In this document: piece after piece, positions 6,972 to 64,000 of the stretch
Position numbering within the stretch: position 1 is the stretch's first letter
How the letters are laid out: each line of letters opens with the position of its first letter
Source: a virus
IMG/VR virus record: IMGVR_UViG_3300043446_003110
Direction: 5' to 3' (one strand)
DNA length: 64,000 nt
Program-made: the position numbers and the translations under genes
The notes under the pieces: model-generated
What the model was told of the DNA's origin: nothing
Databases searched by the model: none
The model's input: the letters and a program-made list of their open reading frames with translations, nothing else

Positions 6972-7601
6972 ATGGCATCCACATCAGCAAAACAGTCCGG
7001 TGGTAATCCAAACAACGACGGCGGCGTAATAATCCAAGCTGGCAATGTATCAGAAAATTTAACCGATCTTTCAATTATCGGTAATCTTCCCTCAGTTCCA
7101 GCCTATGGAACAGTTGTAGTACAGGATACACCTTCTGCACCATTGGATTATACTGACCCACACGGTGTAACTAAGGCTAAAAGCACTGGTACATTTGCAT
7201 ACACACCAGCCCCCGGTACAAACTTTTTAGTACGTGGTGGCGGTGATAATGCTAGCAGTATTAATGGTGTTTCTAGTCCAGCGTTGTCTGGTGTATTAGG
7301 CATTCCCGGCGGTGCTGCTGGCTTCATGACCAACAAAAACTTGAAGTCAACACAGGTTGGTACATATGCTACTAGGACTTTCAACGTTTTAGCTACACCA
7401 TCAAGTGGTAATTTCCCCGGTTTAACTAGAGGTACTGGTGCTGGTACTGCTGTAACTTACTCATCAACTAGTGGTAATTATCCCGCTGTTGATGATGCCG
7501 CTACAACAAGCAGAACAGTTCCCGGTGAACTTACATACATGTTTGGTTCCACAGTTCCTACACGTAATACAGCTTACAAGGCTAAAGATAGTAACGAATA
7601 A
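6972..7601 (+). CDS. Gly/Ser/Thr-rich protein, probable abundant virion protein
   Basis: Strong AAGGAG RBS, own upstream intergenic region and downstream hairpin; low-charge G/S/T/P composition. Confidence 0.55.
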   Translation: MASTSAKQSGGNPNNDGGVIIQAGNVSENLTDLSIIGNLPSVPAYGTVVVQDTPSAPLDYTDPHGVTKAKSTGTFAYTPAPGTNFLVRGGGDNASSINGVSSPALSGVLGIPGGAAGFMTNKNLKSTQVGTYATRTFNVLATPSSGNFPGLTRGTGAGTAVTYSSTSGNYPAVDDAATTSRTVPGELTYMFGSTVPTRNTAYKAKDSNE

Positions 7602-7613
7602 TTAATCGTTATT

Positions 7614-7654
7614 TAAGATAAGTGCCTTTGAGAAATCTTAGGCACTTTATCTTA
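7614..7654 (+). terminator. Long stem-loop (terminator or mRNA stabiliser)
   Basis: TAAGATAAGTGCCT...GAAA...AGGCACTTTATCTTA inverted repeat after the 209 aa gene. Confidence 0.65.
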
Positions 7655-7675
7655 CCTTTATCCTTGGAGGCAACT

Positions 7676-8269
7676 ATGTTAGACATAAAAGATCCACAAA
7701 ATATACCCATAATATGGGGAATATTAGGAGCAATTGGCACTTTTTGCAGCCTAGTTTGGGTAAAAATAGTAAAACCAACGATAAAATTTGTAAAAGGACA
7801 AGAAGAAATAACTCATTCTCTTGAAACAATACGTAAAGAGTTAACAACTAATGGTGGAAATAGCTTAAAAGATACTGTAATAGATTTGCGTTCTACCATA
7901 AACAGAATGGAAAAAAGACAAAAAATTATAGAACAAAGAACAAAAGCCGCACTACACTATAACGATGTCGCTTTATTCGAAATAGATGATAGTGGCAGAT
8001 TAACGTGGACAAATAATAATTTTTATGAATTAACACAAGATGTATTAAATAGCGTAGATGGATATGATTGGCTTAATTATGTGCAAGAAAATCAAAGAGA
8101 AGAATTATTTGATGAATTAAAATCCTGTTTAGAAATGAACAGAAAATTAGCAAAAACAGTAAAAACGGTAGATGGAAAACTAGTAAAGTTTACTGGTTTT
8201 CCTTATAGGATAAATGAAAAAGAGCATGGAGGATTTTTAGTAAGCATTTCTCAACTCAAGGAGATATAA
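7676..8269 (+). CDS. Membrane protein: TM + coiled coil + C-terminal PAS domain
   Basis: GGAGG RBS before ATG7676; TM IIWGILGAIGTFCSLVWV; ELTTNGGNSLKD; PAS signature LFEIDDSGRLTWTN..FYELT..GYDWLNYV.E.QRE. Confidence 0.8.
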   Translation: MLDIKDPQNIPIIWGILGAIGTFCSLVWVKIVKPTIKFVKGQEEITHSLETIRKELTTNGGNSLKDTVIDLRSTINRMEKRQKIIEQRTKAALHYNDVALFEIDDSGRLTWTNNNFYELTQDVLNSVDGYDWLNYVQENQREELFDELKSCLEMNRKLAKTVKTVDGKLVKFTGFPYRINEKEHGGFLVSISQLKEI

Positions 8270-8271
8270 CA

Positions 8272-8493
8272 ATGTCAGAAGTCAAATGTGGTTCTGGTCC
8301 CTTTGCATTAAATACAACAGATCTGATTTCAGTAGGTAAAAATGCCCTATTAGTAGGTTTAGCCGCAGTACTAACTTATGTTGGCGAAAATTTAACTAAA
8401 TTAGATCTTGGAAATATGACAGCCCTAGTTGTACCCGTTACGGTAGTAGTGATAAACACATTAGTAAAATGGGCCAAGGATAATACAAAGTAA
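8272..8493 (+). CDS. Holin-like protein (2 TM)
   Basis: 73 aa, two hydrophobic helices, charged C-terminus KWAKDNTK; AAGGAG RBS. Confidence 0.6.
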   Translation: MSEVKCGSGPFALNTTDLISVGKNALLVGLAAVLTYVGENLTKLDLGNMTALVVPVTVVVINTLVKWAKDNTK

Positions 8494-9410
8494 TGTTTAA
8501 AACACCAAAAGATCTCTTAAAAGCTTATAAAGAAGGCTTTGTAGGATCATATTGTGATCCAAAAGAATTAGATAAACTTTTAGGTAAATTACCACATCCT
8601 TTATTTGGTGTGGCCGCTCATGATTTATATGGAAGCGGTAAAGGTAAGTTAGCATTACCATTTAAAAATTTACTTAAGTTTGATCCATCTTTTGGCCCAT
8701 CGGAAAGGCAAATTCAAGGAGATTGTGTTTCACATGCTACGCGAAACGCTGTAGACGTTACTAGAAGCTGTGAAATAGTAGACGGCCAACGAGAAGAATT
8801 TGTTTGTCGTGGTGCCACGGAAGGCATATACGGATCTCGCGGCCATGGCGGCGAAGGTATGACTTGTGCTGGTGCAGCAAGATTCGTTCATGAAACCGGC
8901 GGTATATTATTAAGACAAAAGTACGGAGAATACGATCTATCTGAATATAATGCCATTGGTGGCAAATGGGGCAGATCTGGAGTACCAGACGAGTTAGTTC
9001 AATATGCAAAAAAACATCAAGTAAAAACAATTAGCTTAATCAATACTATAGATCAAGCTAGAGATGCTTTAGCTAATGGATATTCTATTAGCGTTTGCTC
9101 AATGTCTGGATTTAGTTCTAGGCGTGATAAAAATGGAATAGCAGCACGTTCTGGATCATGGAGTCATGCCATGGCTTGGATAGGTATGGATGACACTCAT
9201 GAAATATACAATGAAACTTTATTCTTAGTCCAAAATTCTTGGGGGATTTGGAATAATGGGGAAAAGCGTTTAGATCAACCAGATGGTAGTTTCTGGATAC
9301 GAGAACGAGATGCAGCAGAAATGCTTGCATCAAATGGTTCGTGGGTGTTTAGCGATGTAGATGGTTTTCCCCCAAGAAAAGTAACTTGGACATTAAAAGA
9401 TCAATTCTAA
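8493..9410 (+). CDS. Papain-family (C1A-like) cysteine peptidase
   Basis: QIQGDCVSH (oxyanion Q, catalytic C), WSHAM (H), QNSWG (N), GSFWI. Confidence 0.88.
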   Translation: MFKTPKDLLKAYKEGFVGSYCDPKELDKLLGKLPHPLFGVAAHDLYGSGKGKLALPFKNLLKFDPSFGPSERQIQGDCVSHATRNAVDVTRSCEIVDGQREEFVCRGATEGIYGSRGHGGEGMTCAGAARFVHETGGILLRQKYGEYDLSEYNAIGGKWGRSGVPDELVQYAKKHQVKTISLINTIDQARDALANGYSISVCSMSGFSSRRDKNGIAARSGSWSHAMAWIGMDDTHEIYNETLFLVQNSWGIWNNGEKRLDQPDGSFWIRERDAAEMLASNGSWVFSDVDGFPPRKVTWTLKDQF

Positions 9411-9811: not shown

Positions 9812-10114
9812 ATGAAATATATATTTTTATGTTGCTTTTTATTATGTGGATGTATTAACGAACAAAATTGTTCAGTAAATCCACAAGATATAACAAACAT
9901 GTATTCTTCTTATGTAACGGAATGGCAAGAGAAATGCAAGAACGCATTTGATACGGCTGAACAAGAAGTATTTAAACCGCAACCAAAACCAGTTGTAGAT
10001 GATACTAATCCAGATCCAGCAAAATGTATCTGCAAGGGTACTGGAATAATCGTACAGGGAGATGGGCATAATACTGTTTGCCCATATCACGGCAAGACCA
10101 CTAATAAGAGGTAA
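9812..10114 (+). CDS. Putative lipoprotein with C-terminal Cys/His zinc-finger-like motif
   Basis: Signal with lipobox LLCGC; CICKGTG...GDG...CPYH. Confidence 0.65.
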   Translation: MKYIFLCCFLLCGCINEQNCSVNPQDITNMYSSYVTEWQEKCKNAFDTAEQEVFKPQPKPVVDDTNPDPAKCICKGTGIIVQGDGHNTVCPYHGKTTNKR

Positions 10115-10118
10115 TAAA

Positions 10119-10406
10119 ATGGAACTTTGGCAGATGGTGTTATTGTGCTTGGGATTATTAATATTATCAACAAATTTTATTGATATTCCATATTTAATTT
10201 CTAAGCTTGTTTCTAAATCAAAAACAAGAGAATTAATAGAAAAAGACGAAAACAAACAAGAGGGATTTTTGGAAATTGTCAGTTTATGGTATCAACTAAA
10301 AAATAAATGTGACGAACATAATCTTGATGTAGCTTCCGATAAACTTGATGAAGTATTCCCACTTTTAAACAAGGTAATTGAGGATAATAATGGAAAAGTT
10401 TCTTAA
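10119..10406 (+). CDS. Membrane-anchored hypothetical protein
   Basis: GAGGT RBS before ATG10119; N-terminal TM. Confidence 0.65.
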   Translation: MELWQMVLLCLGLLILSTNFIDIPYLISKLVSKSKTRELIEKDENKQEGFLEIVSLWYQLKNKCDEHNLDVASDKLDEVFPLLNKVIEDNNGKVS

Positions 10407-10860
10407 ATTAAAAAATTTAATAGCTATAATGTTGATTGGAGTGGCGTTATGTGGTTCTATAAATAATGTATTACCAGTAATAATACCAAAACCAGATGTT
10501 GCTATACTTAACATAGATAAACCATCTGACAGAATTATAGAATTAACAAAATCTACATCTAATCTTGTTACTGATCCAACCGATAGAGCTAAATTAGCTA
10601 TTTATAGTCAAGAATTTTCTAGTAGAGTCATAAAATATGACGTTCAGTTACAACAAGTGAACGATATTTTATCAATTGCAGCAAGAGAGTTTTTCCAAGG
10701 ATCAATAAACGATAAATATGTTGGACTTGATGATAGAATTATTAATCTAATTACTTCTGCCTGTGGTGGAGATGAAAACCATAAACTTACTGAACAAGAA
10801 AAAATTGAAATATCAGAAAGATTTTTAGGACTTGCTTGGTTATTAATTCAAAGAAAGTAA
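10390..10860 (+). CDS. Secreted or membrane-anchored helical protein
   Basis: GAGG RBS; hydrophobic N-terminus LIAIMLIGVALC. Confidence 0.65.
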   Translation: MEKFLKLKNLIAIMLIGVALCGSINNVLPVIIPKPDVAILNIDKPSDRIIELTKSTSNLVTDPTDRAKLAIYSQEFSSRVIKYDVQLQQVNDILSIAAREFFQGSINDKYVGLDDRIINLITSACGGDENHKLTEQEKIEISERFLGLAWLLIQRK

Positions 10861-10863
10861 AAT

Positions 10864-11499
10864 ATGGCTATACCAATCTCTCAGATAAAACAAATAGTTG
10901 ATTTCATTTTTTCTAAAAATGGATATGATATAAAAAATCTAAATATTAGTTTTCCACAGCCGCTAGACATAAAAATTGTAAAAGACTCGTCAGAAAATAT
11001 CATCTTGTCTTTCACTGAATCATTACCAAAAGTAACATGGAAAAAATTTGTTAGATTAAGTGCTTATGTACAGGGGTTGACTTTGGGCAAAGACGGTGGT
11101 ACACTTAAGTTGAAGTACCTACCAGACATCAATTTTACTTATGATGACAATTCAGAGTCATTATTTGGCAACTCATTTGATGTTAGCGATATAGAATTTC
11201 AAGTTGATACAGAATTTCCAGATGAAGAACAAAACTTTTTAGCAAAAAAGTGCTTGCACTATGCCAATGAATGGGCTACAATAGTTAGCCAAAGCGGCAC
11301 AGATTTTGGTTCATGCGACAGATATATCAGAAGACAACTCAAAAAAGATTGCAAAAATTTTGTCATATCAAATGTAAAAGATGACGAAGAGGTTCGCCAC
11401 GGATCTGTCGTTTTGACATTTTTATTAATCTATGTTGTATTACCTGTTGTGCTTAAATTTGTGCTTGAAAGACTCTTTAAAAAACTATTTAACGAATAA
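10864..11499 (+). CDS. Hypothetical protein with C-terminal TM helix
   Basis: VVLTFLLIYVVLPVVLKFVL at C-terminus. Confidence 0.65.
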   Translation: MAIPISQIKQIVDFIFSKNGYDIKNLNISFPQPLDIKIVKDSSENIILSFTESLPKVTWKKFVRLSAYVQGLTLGKDGGTLKLKYLPDINFTYDDNSESLFGNSFDVSDIEFQVDTEFPDEEQNFLAKKCLHYANEWATIVSQSGTDFGSCDRYIRRQLKKDCKNFVISNVKDDEEVRHGSVVLTFLLIYVVLPVVLKFVLERLFKKLFNE

Positions 11500-27310: not shown

Positions 27311-28942
27311 ATGAATTGGTTCCCATTGAAGAATTTTACACATTACAGTCTTCTTCGTGGATATTCTAAACCAGAAGAACTGGCACAAAAGTGCAAAGAT
27401 AATGGATATCCAGCCTGTGGAATATGCGATTACAAAACATTATCTGGTGCAGTAGCTTTTTATAAAGCTTGTAAAAAGGTAGGCATAAAACCAATAATTG
27501 GATGTTCATTTGATTTTGCCATTCTATTTGCTAAAAATAAGCAAGGTTGGTATGAATTGATAGAAATGGTTTCTTCATTAGATGAAAATGGAAAATTACC
27601 AGAACGTTATGACAATATAGACATTAGCAAAAATCTCGTTAGTGTTTATAAAGGTTCAACTGATGATATGCCTATTAGCTATTATACCAATCGTGAAGAT
27701 GCAAAACTTCACAGAGTTCTATTGTGTTCAGATATGAAAACCACATTACCCAAAATATTTAAGTCTGTTAGACCAGACAATAAGGGTGGAATAAATATAG
27801 ATGCTAAGTTTCCTAGCGAACATGCTGATAAGTTAACATATTTTATGCAAGATAATTTCTATATAAAAGACAAGAACGAATCCAGCAATTTAGATACGTC
27901 AAAGTTAAAAGATATTTATGATCAGTGTAAAGACTATGATATATTAAGTAAACCAATATTACCAAAATTCTCTTGCCCAAATGGGTTAACAGAAGAAGAA
28001 TATCTTAAAGAATTATGCCGTAAGGGGTGGAAAGAATTGCTCATAGACGGCAATAAAGTGTCCAATGAAGATTCCAAGCAAAAGTATCTTGATAGATTTA
28101 AAGAAGAATTCGACGTAATCAAAGACGCCAATTTATTCGGTTATTTTTTGATTGTTCAAGATATCATCAAGTATGTAAATGATCGCGGTTGGCTCTCCGG
28201 TCCCGGAAGAGGATCTGCGGCAGGGTGCTTAATATCTTACTTGATAGGAATTACTAAGATAGATCCAATTGAATTTGACCTTCTATTTGCACGTTTTTAC
28301 AATGCCGGTAGAAATACCGCTGATCATATATCTTTGCCAGATATTGATATGGATGTCCCCGGTACAAAACGAGATGAGATAATATCTTATCTAAAAGATA
28401 AATATGGGAATGAAAGAGTTAGTCAAATGTTGACATTTGGAAGACTTCAAGGTAAAAGTGCAATAAAAGAGGTATTACGCATAAATGAAGCGTGTTCTTT
28501 TGCAGAAATGAATGCTATCAGCAATTGTATACCAGATGAAGCTAGAATTTCAGATCAATTGGCAGAAATGGATGACGAAGATAGATCTATCATCAGATGG
28601 GCATTAATGAATAATGCTGATGAACTAAGAGATTTTTGTAGACTCAATGACGATGGATCATTAGAAGGAGAATACGCTGAGTACTTCGATCAAGCGATAA
28701 AAATAGAAGGAACCTTCAAAACGCAAGGTAAACATGCTGCTGGAGTTGTAATCTCAGCTGACCCTCTTCAAAAAGTATGCCCAATGGTTAAACAAAAAGG
28801 ATCTAATGAAAAAATAGCCGGTCTGGAAATGTCAGATCTGGAAGCATTGGGTCATGTAAAATTTGATGTATTGGGCATAAATTTGCTTGATAAAATAATG
28901 AAAATTGAACAATTAACTGGAGATAATAATGGCAAATCGTGA
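27311..28942 (+). CDS. dnaE: DNA polymerase III alpha, N-terminal part (degenerate PHP + palm/thumb)
   Basis: THYSLL, YFLIVQD, GPGRGSAAG, LPDIDMD, GKHAAGVVIS, KFDVLG. Confidence 0.93.
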   Translation: MNWFPLKNFTHYSLLRGYSKPEELAQKCKDNGYPACGICDYKTLSGAVAFYKACKKVGIKPIIGCSFDFAILFAKNKQGWYELIEMVSSLDENGKLPERYDNIDISKNLVSVYKGSTDDMPISYYTNREDAKLHRVLLCSDMKTTLPKIFKSVRPDNKGGINIDAKFPSEHADKLTYFMQDNFYIKDKNESSNLDTSKLKDIYDQCKDYDILSKPILPKFSCPNGLTEEEYLKELCRKGWKELLIDGNKVSNEDSKQKYLDRFKEEFDVIKDANLFGYFLIVQDIIKYVNDRGWLSGPGRGSAAGCLISYLIGITKIDPIEFDLLFARFYNAGRNTADHISLPDIDMDVPGTKRDEIISYLKDKYGNERVSQMLTFGRLQGKSAIKEVLRINEACSFAEMNAISNCIPDEARISDQLAEMDDEDRSIIRWALMNNADELRDFCRLNDDGSLEGEYAEYFDQAIKIEGTFKTQGKHAAGVVISADPLQKVCPMVKQKGSNEKIAGLEMSDLEALGHVKFDVLGINLLDKIMKIEQLTGDNNGKS

Positions 28943-29609
28943 TTATATTATTTTTGATTTTGAAACTGGATCACGCAACCCACATAGAACACAACCAACA
29001 CAAATAGCCGCAATTGCTTTAGATGGTCGCACATTGCATATGAAAGGTCAATTTAATAGTGAAATCAAACCAATATTTGATGATGAAAAAGCTATAGCAG
29101 CTGGACTTGATCCGATAGAAAATGAAGCATTAAAGATAACTAAAAAGACTAGAGAGCAACTAGAAGAAGCACCATCTTTAAAATCAGTATGGTCTAAATT
29201 CACAAAGTTTGTGGATCAATATAACTGGAAGGGCGATGCATTTTACAATCCAATACCAGTTGGATTTAATATTATTGGATTTGATATGATAATCATAAAT
29301 AGACTTTGTAAAGAATTTGGACCTTGGGACAAGGAAAGAGAGCAGCAAAAACTTTTTAGTAAGGTTTACAAAATAGATATAATGGATAGTATATTTGCTT
29401 GGACAGAAAGTGATCCTAGTGTTAGATCAATAAGCATGGATTCATTGAGACAGCGAATGGGTCTAGATATGGAAAATGCTCATGATGCTCTACAAGATGT
29501 AAAAGATGAAGCTAATATTTTTATTAAAATCATGAAAACCCACCGTGCTGTTTACCAAAATATGAATTTTGACAAAGCCTTTGCTAATGGTGAATTATAT
29601 GTCAAATAA
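28929..29609 (+). CDS. DEDDh 3'-5' exonuclease (DnaQ/epsilon-like)
   Basis: ExoI DFETG, ExoII GFNIIGFD, ExoIII HDALQD; GGAG RBS. Confidence 0.9.
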   Translation: MANRDYIIFDFETGSRNPHRTQPTQIAAIALDGRTLHMKGQFNSEIKPIFDDEKAIAAGLDPIENEALKITKKTREQLEEAPSLKSVWSKFTKFVDQYNWKGDAFYNPIPVGFNIIGFDMIIINRLCKEFGPWDKEREQQKLFSKVYKIDIMDSIFAWTESDPSVRSISMDSLRQRMGLDMENAHDALQDVKDEANIFIKIMKTHRAVYQNMNFDKAFANGELYVK

Positions 29610-31170
29610 TTTATCTTATGACGATAAAGATACTTGGAAATTGTTTGCAGAAGGTAAGACAAAAGGTGTTTTTCAATTAGAAAGCAATCTTGGAAAATCT
29701 TGGGCTAAAAAAGTTGCTCCAACGAATATAGAAGAACTATCTGCATTAATAGCTATTATAAGACCCGGAACATTAAAAGCTTTTGTAGATGGAAAAAGCA
29801 TGACCCAGCACTATGTAGATAGAAAACACGGTCGGGAAGATGTGACTTATTTACATCCAATATTAGAGGATATATTAAAATCAACATATGGAGTATTAGT
29901 ATATCAAGAGCAATCTATGCGTATAGCAGAGAAAGTAGCTGGATTTAACTTACAAGAGGCTGATGTTCTGCGTAAAGCCATTGGAAAGAAAAAGGCCGAT
30001 CTCATGAATGAAGTAAAAAAATCATTCCTAGCAGGAGCAGAACGTGTAGGAATTGTTTCTAAAGAAGATGCAGAGCAGATATTTGGATGGATCGAAAAAT
30101 CTTCTCGCTATGCATTCAATAAATCTCACAGCGTTTCCTATGCCGTCTGTTCTTATTGGAGTGCATACTATAAAGCCCACAACACAAAGGAGTTCTTTTT
30201 ATCATATTTGTATTATGCTAATGAAAAGCAAGATCCACAGAAAGAAGTATATGAACTTATATCTGAAGCAAAATTGTTTGATATAGAGACTAAGACTCCA
30301 AATATATCTAATTTTCAGAAAAAATTCAATATTAAAGACAACAAGATATATTTTGGAATTAAAGATGTAAAGTCTTTGACGGGCGCTACAGGAGATAAGC
30401 TTTTAGAAGTAATAAGTTTAGCTGAGAAGGAATTAAATAAAACTATTGATAAGTTTACATGGTTAGAAATATTATTATTTGTATCATCCAAGATAAGTTC
30501 TACTGCTTTTAAGGCTTTAGCCTCAATAGGATTTTTTAGAGGCAAAACAAGCAATATAACTAGAAACAAAGCACTATATGATTATGAAATATATAGAACT
30601 TTAACTAAAGCGGAACAGTCGTGGGTCATTGAAAATTACAAATCCAAACAGTGGACAACATTTGTAGATTGTCTCAAAGACTTAGCCCCAATAAAAAAAG
30701 ATGGTGGCGGTACTAGTAAAGTAGATAGAAAACAAGCTATTGAAAATGAAATACAACTCTTAATAAATCCACCATATGATTTAGATGACGATCCAAGCTG
30801 GGTAATAGATCAAGAAGTCAAGTTCTTGGGATGCCCAGTTAGCATAACAAAAGTGGAAACATCTGACACATCTGCGGCAAATACTACATGCAAGGAAATT
30901 ATAAATGGAAAACGCGGCAAAAATTTATGCATTGTCGCTAATATACAAAGAGTTTCAGATTATACTATCACCAAGGGCGAATCTAAAGGGCAAGTTATGT
31001 CATTTTTGACCATAGAAGATGATACGTGCATATTAGATAGTGTAATAGTATTCCCTAAAATTAAAGAAAAATACAAGTATATTTTATACGAAGGTAACAA
31101 CTTGATATTCTGCGGAACTGTCAGCGAAAAAGATACATCATTTATCGTAGATACAATCCATGAAATTTGA
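29599..31170 (+). CDS. dnaE: DNA polymerase III alpha, C-terminal part (fingers, HhH, OB)
   Basis: GVFQLES, ALIAIIRPG, TYGVLVYQEQ.M, ADVLRKAIGKK, YAFNKSH, MSFLTIEDDT. Confidence 0.93.
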   Translation: MSNNLSYDDKDTWKLFAEGKTKGVFQLESNLGKSWAKKVAPTNIEELSALIAIIRPGTLKAFVDGKSMTQHYVDRKHGREDVTYLHPILEDILKSTYGVLVYQEQSMRIAEKVAGFNLQEADVLRKAIGKKKADLMNEVKKSFLAGAERVGIVSKEDAEQIFGWIEKSSRYAFNKSHSVSYAVCSYWSAYYKAHNTKEFFLSYLYYANEKQDPQKEVYELISEAKLFDIETKTPNISNFQKKFNIKDNKIYFGIKDVKSLTGATGDKLLEVISLAEKELNKTIDKFTWLEILLFVSSKISSTAFKALASIGFFRGKTSNITRNKALYDYEIYRTLTKAEQSWVIENYKSKQWTTFVDCLKDLAPIKKDGGGTSKVDRKQAIENEIQLLINPPYDLDDDPSWVIDQEVKFLGCPVSITKVETSDTSAANTTCKEIINGKRGKNLCIVANIQRVSDYTITKGESKGQVMSFLTIEDDTCILDSVIVFPKIKEKYKYILYEGNNLIFCGTVSEKDTSFIVDTIHEI

Positions 31171-44115: not shown

Positions 44116-47100
44116 TTATGTACTGGTTATTTCTAGCTCTACATATCTGGCAGCTGGAACATCTGAACCCTCTCCAAAAATCACTCCTCCTTCTGGATAA
44201 TTAGCTATATCGCTAACAAAAAAGAAGAAAACGTCATACTTTCCAGTACTATTTGGCTCCAATGTAAAAGTGGTAGTTTTAGTACCAGTAATAAATCCCT
44301 TCGAATTTCCTTCACCATTATTATCTTCATGGGTCAATTTTTTAATTCCATAGAATTGTGATTTGTCTACTTTTAATCTTTCATATACTTTACCTCTGGT
44401 AAATACTATTTCCGCCCCAGTACCATTAACGCTCTGTATTGTAGCATTTGCAGTTGGACCATACTTAAATGGATTTACAGTACCATTATTTGCAGTTTCC
44501 CCGTATATATAACCCGGTCCAACATCTATTGACTTTAATAATTCTTCATCTATACTAAGCTGAGAAATACCACCATTATTTGTTAATCCGGTAACAACTA
44601 AATGTGCCGGTTTACCGCCAATATTAACTTTTACTTTATCAAAATCTGCATATCCAGTTCCAGGCTTGTTAATCTTGATAGATGTTGTATCAAGACCTAT
44701 ATATTTTTGAGCATATGCAAATCCACCATCTGATAACAACATATTTCTTCTTACTTTATTTTTTATAGTATCAAACTTGGGAGATCCAGATGTCAAAATT
44801 GTACCGGTTTGTAGAAATACTTCTTCAAAATCCATTTCTGCACCAGAAGGATTAAACTGCAACGGGGCAAAAAATCTACCATCATATATAGTATTTGGAG
44901 AATGATCATATACAGCGCACCATAGGGCAGTTGTTCCTAATTCTTTCACTTGTTCTGCACCTAGACTACCTCCCCACTTGATATGTTCTACACCCATAGA
45001 TCTACCACTTAAATCTTGCGCAAAACCTAATATTGGACTTATGCTAATATTAGTTTGAGAAATTGTGTATGTTGTATACGTTAATAATCCAAGATATTGA
45101 TTGGTCTTGAATTCAACAATCCCGCCTTTTGTCATTGGAAATGTACCTTTTGCTGCTAATATGCCAATGACATTAGAACTCTCTACGGCATTAACCATAG
45201 GAATCATTTCTGGTCCACCGTCAGGTTTGTCGCCTCTTGCTGGAGGTCCAATATTAATTGCAGCAGTTGGATTTTGAATTGCATAATTAATTAATTTATT
45301 AGCAAATGATAGCTTTGCCCTTACACTTCCATCTGGTTCTAAATTTACGGCATTATTAATGCCAATTCTGCTCCAAGCTCCACCAAAATAATCTCCACCA
45401 TATGTGCCAGCGCGTTGTAAAGCCAATTTTAAATCAGAGTATCCTTCATTTAGAGCCGTTTGGGCACCAAGGCCAAAATTATCAATTTGTGTAGTTGACA
45501 GAGCGAGTTCTAATGATAAAGGTGTAAATTGTACGAATGTTGAATTTATAGGTGTCAATCCATAAGCTGGCTTATTAGAAGAATTGTTAAGATAATATCC
45601 CTTTATTTGTTGGTGTAAATATTGAACATAACTATCACAAGTGTTACCATAATATGCACTCATCATAAAAACAGGATCTATACTTTGATTGCCAGAAGAA
45701 TTTAATGCTATCTGGGCAGGCAGATGATAAAAATATGAATCTTTTAGATTGAAAGTAGTGCCAACCAGATTAGTATATGGTGTAAAATTTAGCGTTCCGC
45801 CTTGATATACAACTCTTCCATTTGAAGAAGCTACTTGGGATACAGATCTTGTAGACTTGGTTCGTCTTACACTCAAAGAACTATATCCATCTGGAAAATA
45901 CATACCCCAACTAGTTGGCACATCTTCAGCCGCCACCCCCATAGTATCACTATATGGAGTTGTTCTTTTTATAACGGTATTTTTTAACTTGGTTGGACTA
46001 CTGTTATTTCCACCAATGTCCTTTGGTAACATATCTGCATCATAAAATGTATGATAATTAAAAAAATTAGGTAATATTGATTTATTGCGATTTGCGATAG
46101 TTACTGCATCGTTTACTTCACTTGATGATGGATCTTGAACAGACCCATTAGTATTAAGAGAATAATCAGCATCATCCATAGTAACTAAATTCCATTCTCG
46201 TAATCGCGGAATAATATTATATTGCAATCCACTCACAAGTGGTGCATAAGTAGCAGAAGTAAGACTATCATAAAATTTGGCTCTTACTGCGGCTATATAA
46301 TCTTGAGGTTCTATGAACGATGTATCAGAATCATTTCTAAAAAATCCTTTTGCATTTACTATATATTTTTGTATTTGTGACCACTCAATGGTTAATTTTT
46401 TTGCTACAGAAACACCATTAGCTAATGGAATAGGAACATAATCTCCATTTATTTGACTAGCTATGACTATTTCCCCTTTTGTGAATGCCCGTGTGCTTCT
46501 ATTTATTAAAAGAATTCTTTCTTTGGAAGAAGTAGCACAACCAAATGAAACGGGCGCAAGTAGATGAGGATTTCCCTTCTCTGTTTGCAAAAGCATACCC
46601 CATCCACTAGCAGTCGGTATTTTCAAACTTTCATTGTCAACAAGATCTACATTTTCTGGGAGATCATCTAAAGATACTCCAGCGATATCGTCCAGTAGTC
46701 TGCAATATACTTGAGTTGTTCCAGATTCCCACTCTCCAGTTCCTCTATTAAAACTAACTTTTAGTGGACCAGCTACTGTATTATTTGGATTTTTTATTCC
46801 ACCAACATCTGGCGCAGAAAATGCACCAATTGGAAGAGTTTCACTGATGGCAAATGCATGTTCTTTTCCGGTTGCTGTACGTGCTACACCAGCAATAACT
46901 GGTGGCTGCAAAGCAACGCTCCTATCACTACCATCAGATTTAGATTGAAAAAATATTTTAATGTCTCCACTTGCAGCTAATCCTAATACGTTATATCCCG
47001 CTGCTGAGAATGTAAGACATCCTTCGCGGCTGTTAATAATTTTAGACCAAATATATTTTACATTGTATGCATCAAGCTTTTCTGTGAGCAAAGTAGAATC

Positions 47101-47532
47101 GGCTTTAATAAATCCTTTTTGATATAAATCAAATTTATTTTGAAAGATTTTTAATTGAGTAAATGCAATTCCACCACCTTCACTACCGGTAGTTCCACTT
47201 GGAGTCCAAAAAATATTATTTTCTTCTTGCCCATCGCTTGTAGTATCCAAATATCTTTTTCCATCTTTATCGAATCTTTGCATATGAACAACCGCACTAT
47301 CTCCAAGTAAAATATTTTGAAGATTACCAATGCTAGTTCCAAAAAATTCTTGAATATCTGGATGCCATTGCCATTGCGCATTTGGGGTGCGCGCTTTTGT
47401 TTTACCAAAATTTACTAAACTATTTCTAGTATATGAAGCTAATCCAATATCATGAAGTTTTGTGTCAGATGGAACATAATAATAGTAATTTTTTACAGAA
47501 AATCCAGATCTAGAGTCAAAAAACTTTGTCAT
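44116..47532 (-). CDS. Large putative tail/virion protein (1138 aa)
   Basis: Beta-rich, Gly-rich; INKPGTGY..GGISQLSI..GPGY..GTGAEI repeat-like unit typical of phage fibres/baseplate. Confidence 0.6.
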   Translation of the reverse strand: MTKFFDSRSGFSVKNYYYYVPSDTKLHDIGLASYTRNSLVNFGKTKARTPNAQWQWHPDIQEFFGTSIGNLQNILLGDSAVVHMQRFDKDGKRYLDTTSDGQEENNIFWTPSGTTGSEGGGIAFTQLKIFQNKFDLYQKGFIKADSTLLTEKLDAYNVKYIWSKIINSREGCLTFSAAGYNVLGLAASGDIKIFFQSKSDGSDRSVALQPPVIAGVARTATGKEHAFAISETLPIGAFSAPDVGGIKNPNNTVAGPLKVSFNRGTGEWESGTTQVYCRLLDDIAGVSLDDLPENVDLVDNESLKIPTASGWGMLLQTEKGNPHLLAPVSFGCATSSKERILLINRSTRAFTKGEIVIASQINGDYVPIPLANGVSVAKKLTIEWSQIQKYIVNAKGFFRNDSDTSFIEPQDYIAAVRAKFYDSLTSATYAPLVSGLQYNIIPRLREWNLVTMDDADYSLNTNGSVQDPSSSEVNDAVTIANRNKSILPNFFNYHTFYDADMLPKDIGGNNSSPTKLKNTVIKRTTPYSDTMGVAAEDVPTSWGMYFPDGYSSLSVRRTKSTRSVSQVASSNGRVVYQGGTLNFTPYTNLVGTTFNLKDSYFYHLPAQIALNSSGNQSIDPVFMMSAYYGNTCDSYVQYLHQQIKGYYLNNSSNKPAYGLTPINSTFVQFTPLSLELALSTTQIDNFGLGAQTALNEGYSDLKLALQRAGTYGGDYFGGAWSRIGINNAVNLEPDGSVRAKLSFANKLINYAIQNPTAAINIGPPARGDKPDGGPEMIPMVNAVESSNVIGILAAKGTFPMTKGGIVEFKTNQYLGLLTYTTYTISQTNISISPILGFAQDLSGRSMGVEHIKWGGSLGAEQVKELGTTALWCAVYDHSPNTIYDGRFFAPLQFNPSGAEMDFEEVFLQTGTILTSGSPKFDTIKNKVRRNMLLSDGGFAYAQKYIGLDTTSIKINKPGTGYADFDKVKVNIGGKPAHLVVTGLTNNGGISQLSIDEELLKSIDVGPGYIYGETANNGTVNPFKYGPTANATIQSVNGTGAEIVFTRGKVYERLKVDKSQFYGIKKLTHEDNNGEGNSKGFITGTKTTTFTLEPNSTGKYDVFFFFVSDIANYPEGGVIFGEGSDVPAARYVELEITST

Positions 47533-47540
47533 ATATTATC

Positions 47541-50500
47541 CTATTCAAAGAATTGAAGTCTTGTTTGATCATGATTAACATTTAATACATTTGGCATATA
47601 TGGATTGTATTCTTTAGAGAATGGGCTGAATAATTCATTAATTGATGCACCACCAGATTTATAGGAACGTTCATTGTACAATACATTTCCTTTGTCTCCT
47701 GTCATCATATTCATTGTATTTATGATTTCAGATTCAGATGTAAGACCTCCAGCAAAATTATAGTCAGTAATATTTTCTTCTGATGTGCTAGAACCAAGAA
47801 TTGGTGAATAAGATTTAGTTTCGTATTGATTAACTGATAAAGCAATATAATTATTTGGTGTAGAAGACATTGGTGTACCATTATTGGCAAATAAATTAAA
47901 ACTTCCTATATTATTTACTGCCTGAGATTTTCCAAGACCCTTTCTAATCAAAGAATTTCTTTCGTCGCGTAATTTTTGTCTTTCTCTACTTATCTTAGAA
48001 ATCATATCTTGTTTCTGTTTTTGTAATTTGCCAAAACTAGATGTATACAAATCTAATTTATATGTAGTTCTTAAACCGTTTTCAGACACATCCACGCTTA
48101 TGTTTGTTACTAATGGCCCACCGACCTCTAGAGCTTGACAAAGTGACCTGTCAGGTATTCCGGGAAAAGAAAATCCACCACGCTCAGAAAATAAAAATAG
48201 GCTATTAGCAAATTGAGCTTGCAATACTCCAGCTTGATTTAGAAGTTCATAACCACCATAATTCCACGGAGCGAGATTTTCATCTTTTATGAATTCTACC
48301 CTACCACCAACATTTGTGTATGCGTTGCTTTGGGGATCGACTTGAGAAGATATCCATGGACCATAACATCTTTCGTTAGATATCAAAGGTAATACTACTA
48401 GATTAGGATATACTGGAGATGGAGCGGCCATATTGATTTGATATGGTAAAGCAAATTGCAATTGCCTTTTGGCTTGCTTTGCAGCCATCCAAGCTTTACT
48501 GTTAACTTCTGCCGGAAATGCTGTAATTGGTGGAGATTTAGGAGTGCCATCTGGTCCTCCTCGCGGTACAGAATTGAATTCTGGCAATCCTTTTACAACA
48601 TCAGCAGTAATATAGTGTTTAATTGTTTTAGTATCAAATTGTTGATTAACAGAATCTAAAAATCTAGAGTCTTTAGTTGGTATTAGTCTTTCTGGCAGAG
48701 TAATTAATGCATAAACATAATTAGTATCTAAATCTTTTAATCCAGTTTTAATTAGATCCCCACCAAGCTCTGGAACATATTCAGTAAGAAAATCTAATCT
48801 ATTGACACTACGCTGTGTTGTGGTCGTTGGATAATAAGACGCTTCAAGGAATCTAAAGCTATCAACATAACATCCGGTTCCCGGCTCTAAATCTGTTCTG
48901 GATGATCTATTTGATCCCGCTTTCCAACCAGAACAAGGTATAAATATTTTGCGAGGTTTAGAAGTTTTTGTTCTATACTTAGGCTGTTCACCATAAATAG
49001 ATAAACTAATACCACTAGTTTTTGGTGGCATATAGAAATTTTCATCTACAGTACATTTAACAAAAAGGCACTGTCTAGGAAGCGGTGTATTATCTCTATT
49101 TACAGCATTTGCATCATTGAATGAGTCATCATCATCAGAAGTATTATCCAAAAATTCACATAAATCTGGTATCATGCCTTGAGCAGTTATCAACTGTTGA
49201 GTAAAATCTTCTGGAGACATGGATCCAACATGTAAATATTCACTATTATCAAATCTGACATATGCAGATAATCTTCCATCTTTATCTATAAAATTGGTAG
49301 CATCTTGTGGAGCAAGTTGTTGTAAAACAGCTAGCGGTTTTGCTGATGAGGAAAGTGCATTAATTTGATCAAAAGTTAATGTATTAGTATATAAATCAAA
49401 TGGAAAATATCCACCAAGATTAGTTGGCGTATAATTAAATTCATATTTATCAGACATAGGATTAAAATTTACTCTCAATCCGCCAACGTATTTATCTTGA
49501 TTTGGATCATGCTCGTGAGATAAAAAACTTTCCATAGCATTTTTGGATGCGGGTCTATCTCGGGATACGCTTTGTATAAAAGTGCTACTAAATTCTTCTG
49601 ATATGCCGGACGTAACCGGTCTTGGTCTAAAACCAAATGGTCCAGCTGTATATTCATCACTGTTATTTTTTACTATATCTTTTGCATAAAATAGGTTTAC
49701 TTTGTTTGGTATTCTTACTAAAAATTTTTTACCAAGATTTTCATCAGCAATTTTTTTTAAAAAATTATATACTTTTAATGCATTTTCTGTTCCTTTTTTA
49801 GCCAAGCGTGGTAATATAGCTCCAATTTGATGTAAATTTTCTTCTACATTATTAAGTAATTCTATATCTGGTGGAGTACTATTTAATGCCCCCGATATAG
49901 CAGTATAATAAATTTGTTCCGCTGGTGTTAATTCACCATAATTTATTTCTTCAAGTTGTGAAAGTTGTGAGTTTTTTATATCATCCCAAGAGTTAGCATC
50001 AGCACCGCGAATAGCAGCACCACCAGTAATAAGTCCAGTTATTCTAGATTGTAATTTAGTTAATCCGCCCTCTGGTATCCCTAATTTTGTCATACGCTTA
50101 TAATATAGGGGATATCCATATGGAGGATTACATGGGCTAGATGGTAATTCATCTGGACCAAATAGTGAACCACTACCGGGATATGAGCGAAAAACAGATC
50201 TCGGTACAGTAACAACATATTTATCAGATATTGCTCCCGGAACTCCACCAAAATTCATCGTTTGGCTTAATGCTGCTGATTGTTGACTATCATCTTCCTC
50301 TATAGATTCTAAATATATATCATTATATTGTGCTAAGAAATTTTTCCAACATTCATATGATATAGAAGCAGACCTCAATTCCATTTCTGTCGCAACATAG
50401 TAAGACCCAACACCTTTAGCGTTTAATCCTGTGGTATCTAATAGAATTTGTTGATATGCTCCCCAACCTTTTGGTATTGTCACAGCATTTTGTCCTAATT

Positions 50501-52202
50501 GACCGTAATATGGCAATACTTGTTGTGTTAATTGTTTTTCCAGAGTCCATTGTCGCCAACTACCATCGGTAGCTGGTTCGCCAGTTCTATTGCCTTTTAC
50601 TTCTATAAAATCTCTGTCAGCATTAGTAGAAAAACAATACATATCTACTTCTTGTGCGCCAACAACAAATTTATCCGTTACTAAATTAGATAATTCGTAA
50701 CCGACATCTTGATTTTCAACATATATTCCCCCGCTAGCTGCTAATCTGTCTATATATCTTTTAATTGAACCATATGATGGGGGCGTAGATCTATCTATAG
50801 CATCAAGTCTTATTATGCCAGCGATAAATTTTGTGGGATCAGATAGATTTGTACCATTTTGAGAATATATTTGACTACAAGCTGGATGATTGATTACTGG
50901 CAACAAAGAAACATACAAATCTCTACTAGTAATCTCACAAATTTCTAAAGCAAGATCCAAGAGATTGATTTGATCAAAATCCAAAAAATACAAAGCTGGC
51001 AAAGTTGGCAAGCCAGAAAAATCAATTACATAATTATAGCCACGAAAATTGATAGTGCCACCATATGATTTATTTATATATTCTTGTGGTAACGGTGCGT
51101 CAACAGATAATAAAGCTCTCATAGCTTGGGCGACTCTGTAATACGGAATCCCTTGTGGACTTCTTCTAGACATTCCTGTTCCCGTAAATGGAAAAAATTT
51201 AGCTGGAGATCCAAACATTCCAGAAGCACTTCCCACCCAACAATCTACAGGACTAGTAGAACTAATAGAGCCACTATAAGTGACAGCGCCGGTGGCGTTA
51301 TCTACATATTTTTGGAGCATATTAAATGGACCAAATGTAGAATTAAGAATACCAGAAGTTGTTGTGCTAAAATTGTGTTCTAAAAATCCATAAACATTAA
51401 AAATATTTTTAGTACCAAATGAGCTTCCAGCGTAATTATTCAATATAAGAACAACGTTAGATAATATCTCGCGAGGATCTACAACTTGAACAGAATATGT
51501 GGGATTTCCGGCTGGTCCTCGATTTTGTATATATGATTGTAAAATTCCACCAAATACTATATGCCCAGATCCACGGCCAGCATCTCTATAATAGCTACTA
51601 AAATCAAGTATACTGCTTGCAGCCAAATTAACGTAATTATACGGATTTAAAGAAGTAAAATTGTTCTTATCAAATGATCCAATATTAGTTATATTAACTG
51701 AAGTCAATGTATTGATTCGATAAAGACTGTCAAATGTAGCTCTATACGCTTCTTCAACTGTTGCAAAATTTTGACCAAATTTAAAAAATACAGGACTACC
51801 AGCAATTGGTGGGACAAAACCATCTCCATTTCCACTATGATAAACGTCATCACCCGCTCCTTGAGCGGTATTATCAGATTTATTGTATTCATCAACTACT
51901 AAATCAATAGATAATGTAGAACTAGAATCGCCAAAACCACCATTCATACTAAAATTACGTATAGAAGCACCTAAAAATGTTTGTTGTGGATATCCTCTAT
52001 CGTATGTTTTTGGAGTAGTAGGATCCAAACCCCATCCGCCAGTAGAAATACCTTGCGGTATAACACTTCCGCTTTGTACTGGCCAGCTAGTGCCATAATA
52101 ACCACTTGGTTGTCTTATAGATAATCCGTTAATTCCATTATAAACAGATGGAGTTAGATTGGGATTGCCATAGATACCGGATGTTAATTGTGTTCTATGC
52201 AT
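47541..52202 (-). CDS. Large tail-tip/baseplate hub-like protein (about 1550 aa)
   Basis: FGGILQSY..YSVQVVDPREIL, LLDLALEICE, VTNISVDVSENGLRTTYKL resemble gp27/Tal-type hub elements; start ATG52202. Confidence 0.5.
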   Translation of the reverse strand: MHRTQLTSGIYGNPNLTPSVYNGINGLSIRQPSGYYGTSWPVQSGSVIPQGISTGGWGLDPTTPKTYDRGYPQQTFLGASIRNFSMNGGFGDSSSTLSIDLVVDEYNKSDNTAQGAGDDVYHSGNGDGFVPPIAGSPVFFKFGQNFATVEEAYRATFDSLYRINTLTSVNITNIGSFDKNNFTSLNPYNYVNLAASSILDFSSYYRDAGRGSGHIVFGGILQSYIQNRGPAGNPTYSVQVVDPREILSNVVLILNNYAGSSFGTKNIFNVYGFLEHNFSTTTSGILNSTFGPFNMLQKYVDNATGAVTYSGSISSTSPVDCWVGSASGMFGSPAKFFPFTGTGMSRRSPQGIPYYRVAQAMRALLSVDAPLPQEYINKSYGGTINFRGYNYVIDFSGLPTLPALYFLDFDQINLLDLALEICEITSRDLYVSLLPVINHPACSQIYSQNGTNLSDPTKFIAGIIRLDAIDRSTPPSYGSIKRYIDRLAASGGIYVENQDVGYELSNLVTDKFVVGAQEVDMYCFSTNADRDFIEVKGNRTGEPATDGSWRQWTLEKQLTQQVLPYYGQLGQNAVTIPKGWGAYQQILLDTTGLNAKGVGSYYVATEMELRSASISYECWKNFLAQYNDIYLESIEEDDSQQSAALSQTMNFGGVPGAISDKYVVTVPRSVFRSYPGSGSLFGPDELPSSPCNPPYGYPLYYKRMTKLGIPEGGLTKLQSRITGLITGGAAIRGADANSWDDIKNSQLSQLEEINYGELTPAEQIYYTAISGALNSTPPDIELLNNVEENLHQIGAILPRLAKKGTENALKVYNFLKKIADENLGKKFLVRIPNKVNLFYAKDIVKNNSDEYTAGPFGFRPRPVTSGISEEFSSTFIQSVSRDRPASKNAMESFLSHEHDPNQDKYVGGLRVNFNPMSDKYEFNYTPTNLGGYFPFDLYTNTLTFDQINALSSSAKPLAVLQQLAPQDATNFIDKDGRLSAYVRFDNSEYLHVGSMSPEDFTQQLITAQGMIPDLCEFLDNTSDDDDSFNDANAVNRDNTPLPRQCLFVKCTVDENFYMPPKTSGISLSIYGEQPKYRTKTSKPRKIFIPCSGWKAGSNRSSRTDLEPGTGCYVDSFRFLEASYYPTTTTQRSVNRLDFLTEYVPELGGDLIKTGLKDLDTNYVYALITLPERLIPTKDSRFLDSVNQQFDTKTIKHYITADVVKGLPEFNSVPRGGPDGTPKSPPITAFPAEVNSKAWMAAKQAKRQLQFALPYQINMAAPSPVYPNLVVLPLISNERCYGPWISSQVDPQSNAYTNVGGRVEFIKDENLAPWNYGGYELLNQAGVLQAQFANSLFLFSERGGFSFPGIPDRSLCQALEVGGPLVTNISVDVSENGLRTTYKLDLYTSSFGKLQKQKQDMISKISRERQKLRDERNSLIRKGLGKSQAVNNIGSFNLFANNGTPMSSTPNNYIALSVNQYETKSYSPILGSSTSEENITDYNFAGGLTSESEIINTMNMMTGDKGNVLYNERSYKSGGASINELFSPFSKEYNPYMPNVLNVNHDQTRLQFFE

Positions 52203-52206
52203 ATTA

Positions 52207-52545
52207 CTACCTATATTGCCTACTATATATTTCAAATCTAAAGTTGGCTTTTATTAAATTTGGAAAAACATTGTACCTAAAACCTTGTGAATGATGTATA
52301 TATTGATTGTAGGCTGTAAAATCAGTTATACCATTTACTCGCGAAGCGTAACCATTGGATATGCCAGTTCCTTGATCAAAAACAAGATTTGTTGGAGATA
52401 ATGCGCTACGATTACTAGCATTTGGCGTATATGTTAAACCATATGTCAAGCCAGAAACATTATCCGTAATTGGTTTAGATATTGCTCTGCTATTAGATGG
52501 TAAAAATTCAGATGGATTGTTATTTGTTTCTGCATTTGTTGGCAT
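52207..52545 (-). CDS. Hypothetical protein in structural block
   Basis: 112 aa, tightly packed between structural genes. Confidence 0.6.
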   Translation of the reverse strand: MPTNAETNNNPSEFLPSNSRAISKPITDNVSGLTYGLTYTPNASNRSALSPTNLVFDQGTGISNGYASRVNGITDFTAYNQYIHHSQGFRYNVFPNLIKANFRFEIYSRQYR

Positions 52546-52547
52546 GA

Positions 52548-63900: not shown

Positions 63901-64000
63901 TAACAATTTATCATCACTATATCCAACTACATCAATATTGTAATCTGATTGGCCAGATAATTTTTTGGCAATAATACGTAACTCTACACTATCTACTTCA
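60901..64000 (-). CDS. Large virion protein with LamG/concanavalin-like segment, 5' truncated by window
   Basis: Frame open to window edge; FALFIRFSP..ILS..YSLALICENGILKL..ILITY..YKLY resembles LamG; C-terminal LxL repeats. Confidence 0.65.
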   Translation of the reverse strand, partial: EVDSVELRIIAKKLSGQSDYNIDVVGYSDDKLLYVTSPIGGFLQNSGSLVFNQNNVPNVSGLLNNNYGLSNSSISDFSDYFNYDVSPLGDHYVVSNLVTVDSTEFKEYIVPLEIYQNPRKLGYTKYSLSPYFEHLYLDICPIPSGASISYVSLNVYYKPANALMMHTIGSPSNKNAIQKSIILFPEGQGTITSDKQVSGIPIGFSSPDYLSSNLARRWRGNTGDIFSGGDFSRYEFDFSFNHKQSDTPFLTSYVDFTNIDDADIYDHKNNLIGQSATSLNILSNFGWRYSSDQLIDGITTDYKSTSWSSNIFDAFDRSARISSANSLEFYALNNNSFDDGGNANNILGFALFIRFSPDKVSTNDLNNCVILSYENNNKYSLALICENGILKLKIRKSDDTIVTITDTIPISNYQFPIPILITYNDDGLSYKYKLYTDNSSNLSFEYLRAESESIETYILSNNPTLRIGFSQNFTTYPALPMFLHEIGCSNAFCNILQSNPDRFINQITAKDFFDSYKVLGENIDDDISKWKLGAFKICQFSPSFDRYTKREGKDYITFSLNHHGSGYSQYTDKLLPSNIYLSGVSYHTQIENDFLRLDLSNIDDLDINRFHAIAPRISKNLPKGYNFKEKALFVDTVIEHETNNDFIWPDNNVGAKLIISLYTPTKDNPYMKSKSLGLVNRSIHYLEPSGCIRKITSRLTFDDILDKSEPWAIFTEEIYSKEFKETYFVDDINQMFLQYDVVYPSGAPYKSKIKIHNTNIRSDNAIFLGEYSSTVTPLSLHVSGAYYQFGIMNLFAPEDGTVIEASPNYINLVTKGHLPIPLNDRLNIFLDSSGFYVPPKTLNLFTIGNGVVDSSEQIFAGLFGSSPLKGMSLYVSGEFMTESTLPLYTSGMAFSASNSLNFVALSPTGSVIIDDNISLRIKGINKSINAYPFSTMPLYVYNNDVIVNNASGSIGLHLSGFIPDLFNASGNLPLVTLNYPISDSLASTSATIKWDSDNIGQGITSVDNVYAYVDSDDNIRGTDLICYGGCKQ

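Follow-up and report, generated by a model that had tools for sequence, protein, structure and literature searches.

A gene on a stretch of 64,000 nucleotides of the virus record IMGVR_UViG_3300043446_003110 (the whole stretch is referred to as the window) encodes a small protein composed of one transmembrane (TM) helix, a helical hairpin and a C-terminal PAS domain, for which we propose, with a probability of about 0.5, a lysis-linked role at the membrane step. This TM-PAS protein is a bitopic, phage-specific inner-membrane protein with no enzymatic or DNA-binding output. The proposal draws on its architecture, on the topology rule followed by its family, on the PAS fold, on the coupling of its gene within an operon and on the adjacency of the family to three families of lytic enzymes.

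A position directly 5' of, and overlapping with, the gene of a lytic enzyme is the classical position of a holin gene. Several PAS genes of the family are found in exactly this position. Genes next to an endolysin gene in the manner of a holin are present at loci encoding a peptidase of the M15_3 family (L054, L092 and L111) or an NlpC/P60 enzyme (L045 and its relatives). In the window, the PAS gene is one small gene away from that of a papain-family (C1A) peptidase, and adjacency of this kind is not shared by all members of the family. The association of the PAS gene with lytic-enzyme genes is recurrent, not universal, and we take it as real, since a random gene would be expected directly 5' of a lysin gene in roughly 1–2% of cases per lineage (our own rough estimate).

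Architecture of the TM-PAS protein

The protein starts with an N-terminal tail of nine residues, followed by its single hydrophobic segment and a Lys-rich juxtamembrane stretch; the one TM segment named in a first-pass annotation of the DNA, made from the letters alone, was thus recovered (residues 10–30). The C-terminal flank of this segment carries more Lys and Arg than the N-terminal flank in 266 of 273 family members (means of 3.2 and 0.5, respectively), which by the positive-inside rule means a predicted N-out/C-in topology with the PAS domain on the cytoplasmic side. Glycine makes up 12.3% of the residues in the TM windows of the family, and Gly, Ala, Ser and Thr together 38%. A conserved TM face (S..GG.GT..S) is found in the near clade. 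Such a small-residue-rich helix would fit helix-helix packing and proves nothing by itself.

An AF2 model calculated from a 63-sequence alignment (pLDDT 94.9, pTM 0.72) comprises a helix from residue 9 to 56, a 7-residue turn (57–63, TNGGNSL), a second helix (64–94) and the PAS fold (99–193). The segment after the TM helix, formerly described as a coiled coil, takes in the model the form of an antiparallel helical hairpin whose tip is NGGNSLKD. At this tip the family has a near-invariant NGGxSLKD motif, in which N59, G61, S63 and D66 are conserved to 90–98%, and the column entropy is 1.34 compared to approximately 2.6 elsewhere. In the model, NGG closes the first helix, S63 is the N-cap and D66 occupies the N3 position of the second helix, an arrangement reminiscent of a helix C-cap with a capping box after it. 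HAMP linkers consist of two parallel amphipathic helices with a connector of about 14 residues and directly follow a TM helix. The modelled hairpin is antiparallel with a turn of seven residues and has no match to the HAMP family of Pfam, and is therefore not assigned to the HAMP linkers. In a metagenome protein of 385 amino acids (aa; P0147), the unit is found in tandem, TM-NGGSSFKD-PAS being followed by a KNGKSLVEI helix and a second PAS domain; the NGG-helix element is therefore part of the PAS unit, as the helix that flanks it on the N-terminal side.

The C-terminal part had been proposed to be a PAS domain, and this assignment is borne out by family profiles, model and structure comparisons. 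The model contains a five-stranded antiparallel PAS fold (strands 99–103, 109–112, 158–164, 169–178 and 184–193). VIA-align gave the highest Z score, 13.8, with the PAS/PAC domain 3h9w (rmsd 2.1 over 101 residues), followed by the FAD-PAS domain of NifL (2gj3; 13.6), PF5-LOV (12.4) and Aer (12.1), and Foldseek aligned the domain to RsLOV with an E-value of 4.7e-6. Taken alone, the window protein stays under the Pfam cut-off (14.7 bits for PF00989, cut-off 22.6), and 42 of 63 diverse homologues match PF00989, with E-values for PAS_3 as low as 7.6e-20. A profile of the family retrieved PAS, LOV, Aer and ARNT chains from the PDB (7e-7).

The protein stops four residues past the last PAS strand and has no output domain after it, in line with the earlier statement that a kinase or other output domain is lacking. 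No Pfam match to HisKA/HATPase, GGDEF/EAL or HAMP plus MCP modules was obtained for the window protein or 63 relatives. The flavin-adduct cysteine of LOV domains (GXNCRFLQ motif) has no NCRF-like counterpart in the sequence. Cysteine occurs at two positions, C24 in the TM helix and C151 in helix 138–154, the latter invariant only within the near clade. The domain does not qualify as a heme-PAS domain either: the only histidines are H47, H94 and H183, none of which is located on helix 138–154 (the F helix).

The gene module and the neighbourhoods of the family

In the window, the PAS gene is followed by the genes of a two-TM holin-like protein (c4) and of the C1A peptidase (Table 1), as the first-pass annotation had stated. 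The ribosome-binding site of c4 (AAGGAG, 8258–8263) lies within the last codons of the PAS gene, and c4 is translationally coupled to it. The clusters nearest to c4 in a language-model Atlas are 'Holin family protein' (0.95) and an r1t-holin cluster (0.87). The peptidase matches PF00112 below threshold (E 0.011) and is grouped with viral C1A clusters by the Atlas (0.99); its sequence contains the Q/C/H/N-type motifs QGDC, SHAM and NSWG. With 89–93% identity among close relatives, it is more conserved than its neighbours.

Table 1. Features of the window in and around the PAS gene (positions are those of the window; nt, nucleotides; ORF, open reading frame)
Feature	Position	Strand	Remarks
c1, 209-aa Gly/Ser/Thr-rich protein	6972..7601	+	always directly upstream of the PAS gene in the lineage of the window
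Stem-loop AAGTGCC...GGCACTT, then T-rich tract	7620..7662	+	between the c1 gene and the PAS gene
Ribosome-binding site GGAGG	7666..7670	+	5 nt before ATG 7676; conserved in relatives
Gene of the TM-hairpin-PAS protein (P0001), 197 aa	7676..8269	+	ORF; 375 close homologues
TM helix, residues 10–30, small-residue-rich (GILGAIGT)	7703..7765	+	hydropathy, flank charge
Hairpin tip ELTTNGGNSLKD, residues 55–66	7838..7873	+	most conserved stretch of the family
PAS domain, residues 95–193, predicted cytoplasmic	7958..8254	+	profiles, AF2, Foldseek, VIA-align
c4, 73-aa two-TM holin-like protein	8272..8493	+	ATG 2 nt past the PAS stop codon
C1A papain-family cysteine peptidase, 305 aa, no signal peptide	8493..9410	+	ATG overlaps the c4 stop codon
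Predicted lipoprotein, 100 aa, MKYIFLCCFLLCGC...	9812..10114	+	cluster c14; downstream of the peptidase across the lineage

For the survey of neighbourhoods, 106 loci with a TM-NGG-PAS ORF were collected (35 PAS clusters at 60% identity), and the next gene was tallied for the 91 loci (about 32 PAS clusters) with a downstream flank of at least 300 nt; ORF calling is error-prone in the high-GC loci, and the annotation of neighbours is partial beyond the locally modelled families. A holin-like or peptidase gene is next to the PAS gene in 47 of the 91 loci, corresponding to 11 of the approximately 32 clusters. This gene encodes c4 in 39 loci (7 PAS clusters), Peptidase_M15_3 in three loci (3 clusters) and an NlpC/P60 enzyme in five loci (1 cluster).

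Throughout the lineage of the window, c4 adjoins the PAS gene (39 out of 39 loci) with a gap of 1 to 9 nt, which is kept even where the PAS proteins share only 36–44% identity with that of the window. The pair also stays together at loci with two additional genes between c4 and the peptidase gene. The C1A peptidase is encoded at a distance of at most 1.4 kb in 21 of the 22 c4 loci having enough flank.

The other two enzyme families are found in high-GC lineages unrelated to that of the window. At the three M15_3 loci, the PAS gene overlaps the start of the peptidase gene by 4 nt; the peptidase was recognised by PF08291 in L092 (31.1 bits) and L111 (83.2 bits) and by phmmer in L054 (3e-6). In L045 and four relatives, among them a 100%-complete genome of 58.8 kb, the overlap with the NlpC/P60 gene (PF00877, 41.6 bits) is about 11 nt. 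Neither the M15 nor the NlpC/P60 enzymes encoded beside the PAS gene have an N-terminal hydrophobic segment, and each would therefore need a holin-type exit. The PAS gene is flanked by a small TM ORF of 49 aa in L054 and of 58 aa in L045, and a two-TM ORF of 88 aa is located 1.4 kb downstream of it in L111. The adjacency to M15 and NlpC/P60 genes supports reading the papain-type block of the window phage as a lysis module.

Searches for conventional lysins were negative for the most part. The complete genome of the window phage has no match at E ≤ 0.1 to eight muralytic Pfam families (PF00959 Phage_lysozyme, PF01510 Amidase_2, PF01464 SLT, PF13539 M15_4, PF05838 GH108, PF01551 M23, PF00877 NlpC/P60 and PF00182 GH19). 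In up to 18 PAS-carrying viral records (G005, G007, G013, G023, G027 and others), four of which are at least 91% complete, no other lysin was matched with Phage_lysozyme, Amidase_2, SLT, M15_4, M15_3 and M23, and NlpC/P60 was matched in the L045 group only. The controls for PF00182 and PF05838 failed in the searches of these other records (E ≤ 0.01), so that both negatives are weak. Either the lysins of the PAS-carrying records are unconventional, or they were overlooked by a quick first-look search.

The true start codon of the PAS gene is ATG 7676 and not GTG 7622, because GGAGG is located 5 nt ahead of the former, the latter lies within the conserved stem-loop, and close homologues are nearly always 197 aa long. 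Four base pairs of the stem-loop retain pairing after two-sided changes (alignment fold of 8 relatives), and the element occurs once in the genome. Together with the T-rich tract, it probably acts as a terminator or attenuator and determines how strongly the module is expressed. The c1 protein has no Pfam or PHROG match. Further downstream, the lipoprotein MKYIFLCCFLLCGC, which has a Pro-rich and CxxC region, heads a run of envelope-type genes (9812–11499) that also encodes two proteins with an N-terminal TM segment and a 211-aa protein with a C-terminal one. These envelope-type proteins could be spanin-like partners.

Family distribution and genomic setting

Close relatives of the TM-PAS protein form 375 clusters at 90% identity, and clustering of the wider family at 50% identity leaves 721 representatives at E ≤ 1e-3, or 82 at E ≤ 1e-10. 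With few exceptions, members are 185 to 220 aa long, whatever their neighbours. They are labelled 'PAS domain-containing protein' at JGI and 'PAS domain [uncultured Caudovirales phage]' in UniProt. A DNA motif scan (degenerate NGGxS[LIM][KR]D, 28 codons, ExDxxGxxxW), which covers one spacing class of the family, identified 38 IMG/VR viral contigs and more than 120 metagenome contigs (a lower bound), compared to a single contig, from a phage-like metagenome-assembled genome, in 596 Gb of 185,579 prokaryote species. Owing to this distribution, the family is regarded as essentially confined to free viral genomes, and a moron for lysogenic conversion or superinfection exclusion was set aside on account of the single contig among prokaryote genomes. 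The GC content of the family ranges from 0.32 to 0.64. Searches of 50,697 deposited phage records by blastn and tblastn retrieved no relatives of the PAS protein, c4 or the C1A peptidase, and searches for related loci seeded with single distant proteins (P0125 and P0165) gave no match. The first-pass annotation had placed TM+NGGxSLxD proteins beside holins or endolysins in other phages; a search for stand-alone TM+NGG proteins of about 100 aa yielded hardly anything but PAS proteins of full length and truncated copies.

In Pfam, no holin family was matched by the window PAS protein. Weak PHROG matches were obtained for 28 of 63 family members with phrog_9869, which has no annotated function, and for 2 of 63 relatives with phrog_15431 ('holin'; 9e-6, in the TM/motif region only).

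The source of the window is a complete virus record of 161,058 bp with terminal repeats of 127 bp, assigned to an uncultured aquatic phage. One arm of the genome (+ strand in the orientation of the window) encodes small early proteins, GMP reductase, RNR, RecA, DnaB, DnaG, glycosyltransferases and a split Pol III alpha, and the other arm consists of giant structural genes. The PAS gene is located in the former, between a sigma-like gene and the RNR gene. Pol III alpha is encoded by two ORFs (span 27311–31170), one for the PHP and NTPase domains (27311–28942) and one for the finger domain (29569–31170), with a 226-aa ORF in between (28929–29609). On the – strand, from 44116 to 63999, a row of giant ORFs encodes proteins of 1138, 1564, 608, 2176 and more than 1000 aa, for which Pfam gave hardly any matches except FG-GAP repeats in the 2176-aa protein. 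An archaeal host with an S-layer was dropped as a possibility on account of the bacterial-type replication genes (DnaB, DnaG, Pol III alpha, RecA) and of the lipoprotein and outer-membrane barrel genes. An anti-sigma role toward the sigma-like gene, which lies two genes upstream of the PAS gene, was likewise dropped, since that gene is missing in other lineages.

A proposed role in lysis and its alternatives

For the TM-PAS protein, a putative lysis role, with a putative ligand and direction of regulation, is proposed along the following lines. In the window phage, it would most plausibly be a partner or regulator of the holin-like c4, that is, an antiholin or co-holin; such a role is favoured here because a separate, coupled holin-like gene is present. 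In the M15 and NlpC/P60 lineages, the PAS protein itself might form the hole or act as its gatekeeper. A cytoplasmic cue would cause the PAS domain to shift its own oligomeric state or its binding to a partner, the change would be relayed via the hairpin to the TM helices, and the timing of membrane permeabilisation would then depend on the state of the host. The larger claim is more tentative: it is possible, although we would not expect it, that the family constitutes a widespread new class of lysis clock in aquatic phages, in which a PAS sensor on a hole-forming or holin-gating TM helix responds to a metabolic, redox or energy cue of the host and is combined with three different lytic enzymes.

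Several observations weigh against a role in lysis. The synteny within the lineage of the window reflects common descent, and its 39 loci count as one observation. Neither c4 nor the C1A peptidase was found in other PAS-carrying records, three of them at least 91% complete; both are specific to the lineage of the window. Neither Pfam nor PHROG gave any match for c4, to a holin family or otherwise. The PAS sequence shows no cofactor-binding motif, and the module is situated in the arm for replication and nucleotide metabolism, outside the structural arm. In eight loci (4 PAS clusters), the PAS gene lies between HNH and portal genes, the portal gene being followed by that of a protease-capsid fusion. 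In 13 loci (1 cluster) it precedes the gene of an outer-membrane beta-barrel protein, in two (1 cluster) it is found among tail-fibre genes, and in 21 loci (15 clusters) the next gene is unrelated or unrecognised; Pyr_excise, ferritin-like, ERCC4 and 5'-3' exonuclease genes are among the other neighbours. To our knowledge, no characterised holin or antiholin resembles the TM-PAS protein, which is 200 aa long and has a folded domain in the cytoplasm. In the literature, no PAS-bearing holin or antiholin was found to be described. In the first-pass annotation, a signal-gated holin partner or antiholin with homologues linked to lysis genes had been suggested. The link holds for the c4/C1A, M15_3 and NlpC/P60 loci and breaks down at those with portal, barrel, fibre or unrelated neighbours; the holin-partner idea accordingly gains from the recurrent adjacency to lytic enzymes and from the coupled c4, and loses in that the link is not universal.

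In the barrel lineage (L017, L051, L063 and L067), the PAS gene is followed by that of a secreted, outer-membrane beta-barrel-like protein of 234 aa ending in ...RWNF. It is preceded either by a gene for a protein with ankyrin repeats and a nucleotide cyclase (PF00023, PF00211) or by one for a lipoprotein with C-terminal TM helices.

The loci lacking lysis genes lend weight to a different, though on balance improbable, explanation, namely that the protein serves virulent phages as a general PAS sensor or adaptor tethered to the membrane, which reads or manipulates host physiology without being dedicated to lysis, and that the positions beside lysis genes are slots for accessory genes. It might, for example, pair with PAS-containing membrane kinases or energy sensors of the host, or recruit a phage protein to the membrane. 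About two thirds of the PAS clusters have a next gene that is not evidently linked to lysis, members keep their architecture and a length of about 200 aa in every neighbourhood, the TM sequence shows little conservation across the family, as suits a plain anchor, and PAS domains often form heterodimers. However, a position immediately 5' of three unrelated lytic-enzyme families, with overlapping starts, is hard to obtain by chance, the coupling to the holin-like gene is invariant throughout a deep lineage, and no host target can be named. Even less probable in our view is a structural part of the lysis machinery that senses nothing and in which the PAS domain is merely a dimerisation or docking module; examples would be a tether or chaperone by which the peptidase, until its release, is kept inactive or near the membrane, or a holin with one TM helix and a cytoplasmic domain that does no more than set the size of the oligomer. 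This would agree with the lack of both the NCRFL cysteine of LOV domains and a histidine on the F helix, with conserved PAS residues that are core S-box positions and outline no obvious pocket, with a PAS gene always within one gene of a signal-less peptidase, and with a TM helix rich in small residues like those of oligomerising helices. Many PAS domains, however, bind ligands without a sequence signature; moreover, the C1A, NlpC/P60 and M15 folds would all have to dock on the same PAS domain, and the members in non-lysis contexts would be left unexplained. A chance ORF or annotation artefact without function is practically negligible as an explanation: the conservation seen in the family refutes it, with hundreds of conserved homologues that keep one length and architecture, a very confidently predicted fold and a conserved ribosome-binding site.

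The lysis-linked reading has partial counterparts among known phage systems. In the lysis-inhibition system of phage T4, the holin T is a single-TM protein with a large soluble domain, and of its antiholins RI and RIII the latter acts from the cytoplasmic side (PMC8385771, PMC11413866). The likeness of T/RI/RIII lies in a sensory protein that acts on a holin and sets the timing of lysis, which for the TM-PAS protein is a proposal only. T has its soluble domain in the periplasm, where RI senses superinfection, whereas the window protein carries a cytoplasmic PAS domain fused to a TM helix; a sequence or fold relationship between the T4 proteins and the TM-PAS protein does not exist. A phage PAS receptor that links a small-molecule cue to the decision on host lysis is VqmA-Phage of vibriophage VP882 (PMC8284805, PMC12802170). 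It is a soluble helix-turn-helix transcription factor of a temperate phage, in contrast to the unrelated TM-PAS protein, which is membrane-anchored, has no DNA-binding domain and belongs to a family found in viral contigs and almost absent from prokaryote genomes.

With RsLOV (4hj4/7ob0), PF5-LOV (7r5n), NifL (2gj3) and Aer (8dik), the TM-PAS protein shares the PAS core and flanking helices; these proteins signal by partner binding or oligomerisation and have no catalytic output. The short LOV proteins and NifL are soluble, and Aer contains HAMP and signalling domains, whereas the TM-PAS protein is anchored in the membrane by an N-terminal TM helix that, together with the NGGxSLKD hairpin, is specific to its family. 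Furthermore, LOV proteins, NifL and Aer bind flavin via residues not seen in the TM-PAS protein, which lacks the NCRFL cysteine. The canonical holin-endolysin cassettes of lambda (S/R), of class II two-TM holins such as S21 and of r1t-type holins resemble the loci described here in that the gene of a membrane protein is located directly 5' of, and overlaps, that of a signal-less lytic enzyme, and the lineage of the window additionally has a two-TM holin-like partner of about 70 aa. Holins, however, are small and without a folded sensor domain, and the enzyme in the lineage of the window is a papain-family peptidase instead of a member of a known muralytic family.

The timing of lysis is central to phage fitness and is known to be controlled by holin concentration clocks, by dual-start antiholins and by superinfection sensing of the T4 type. 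Even if the lysis-linked reading were wrong, the family described here would be among the largest virus-specific families of stand-alone PAS proteins without a known role. If the reading is true, a cytoplasmic sensor of a ligand or of redox state that is built into the membrane step would represent a new principle of lysis control, and it would tie host physiology to the timing of the burst in abundant uncultured freshwater and marine phages.

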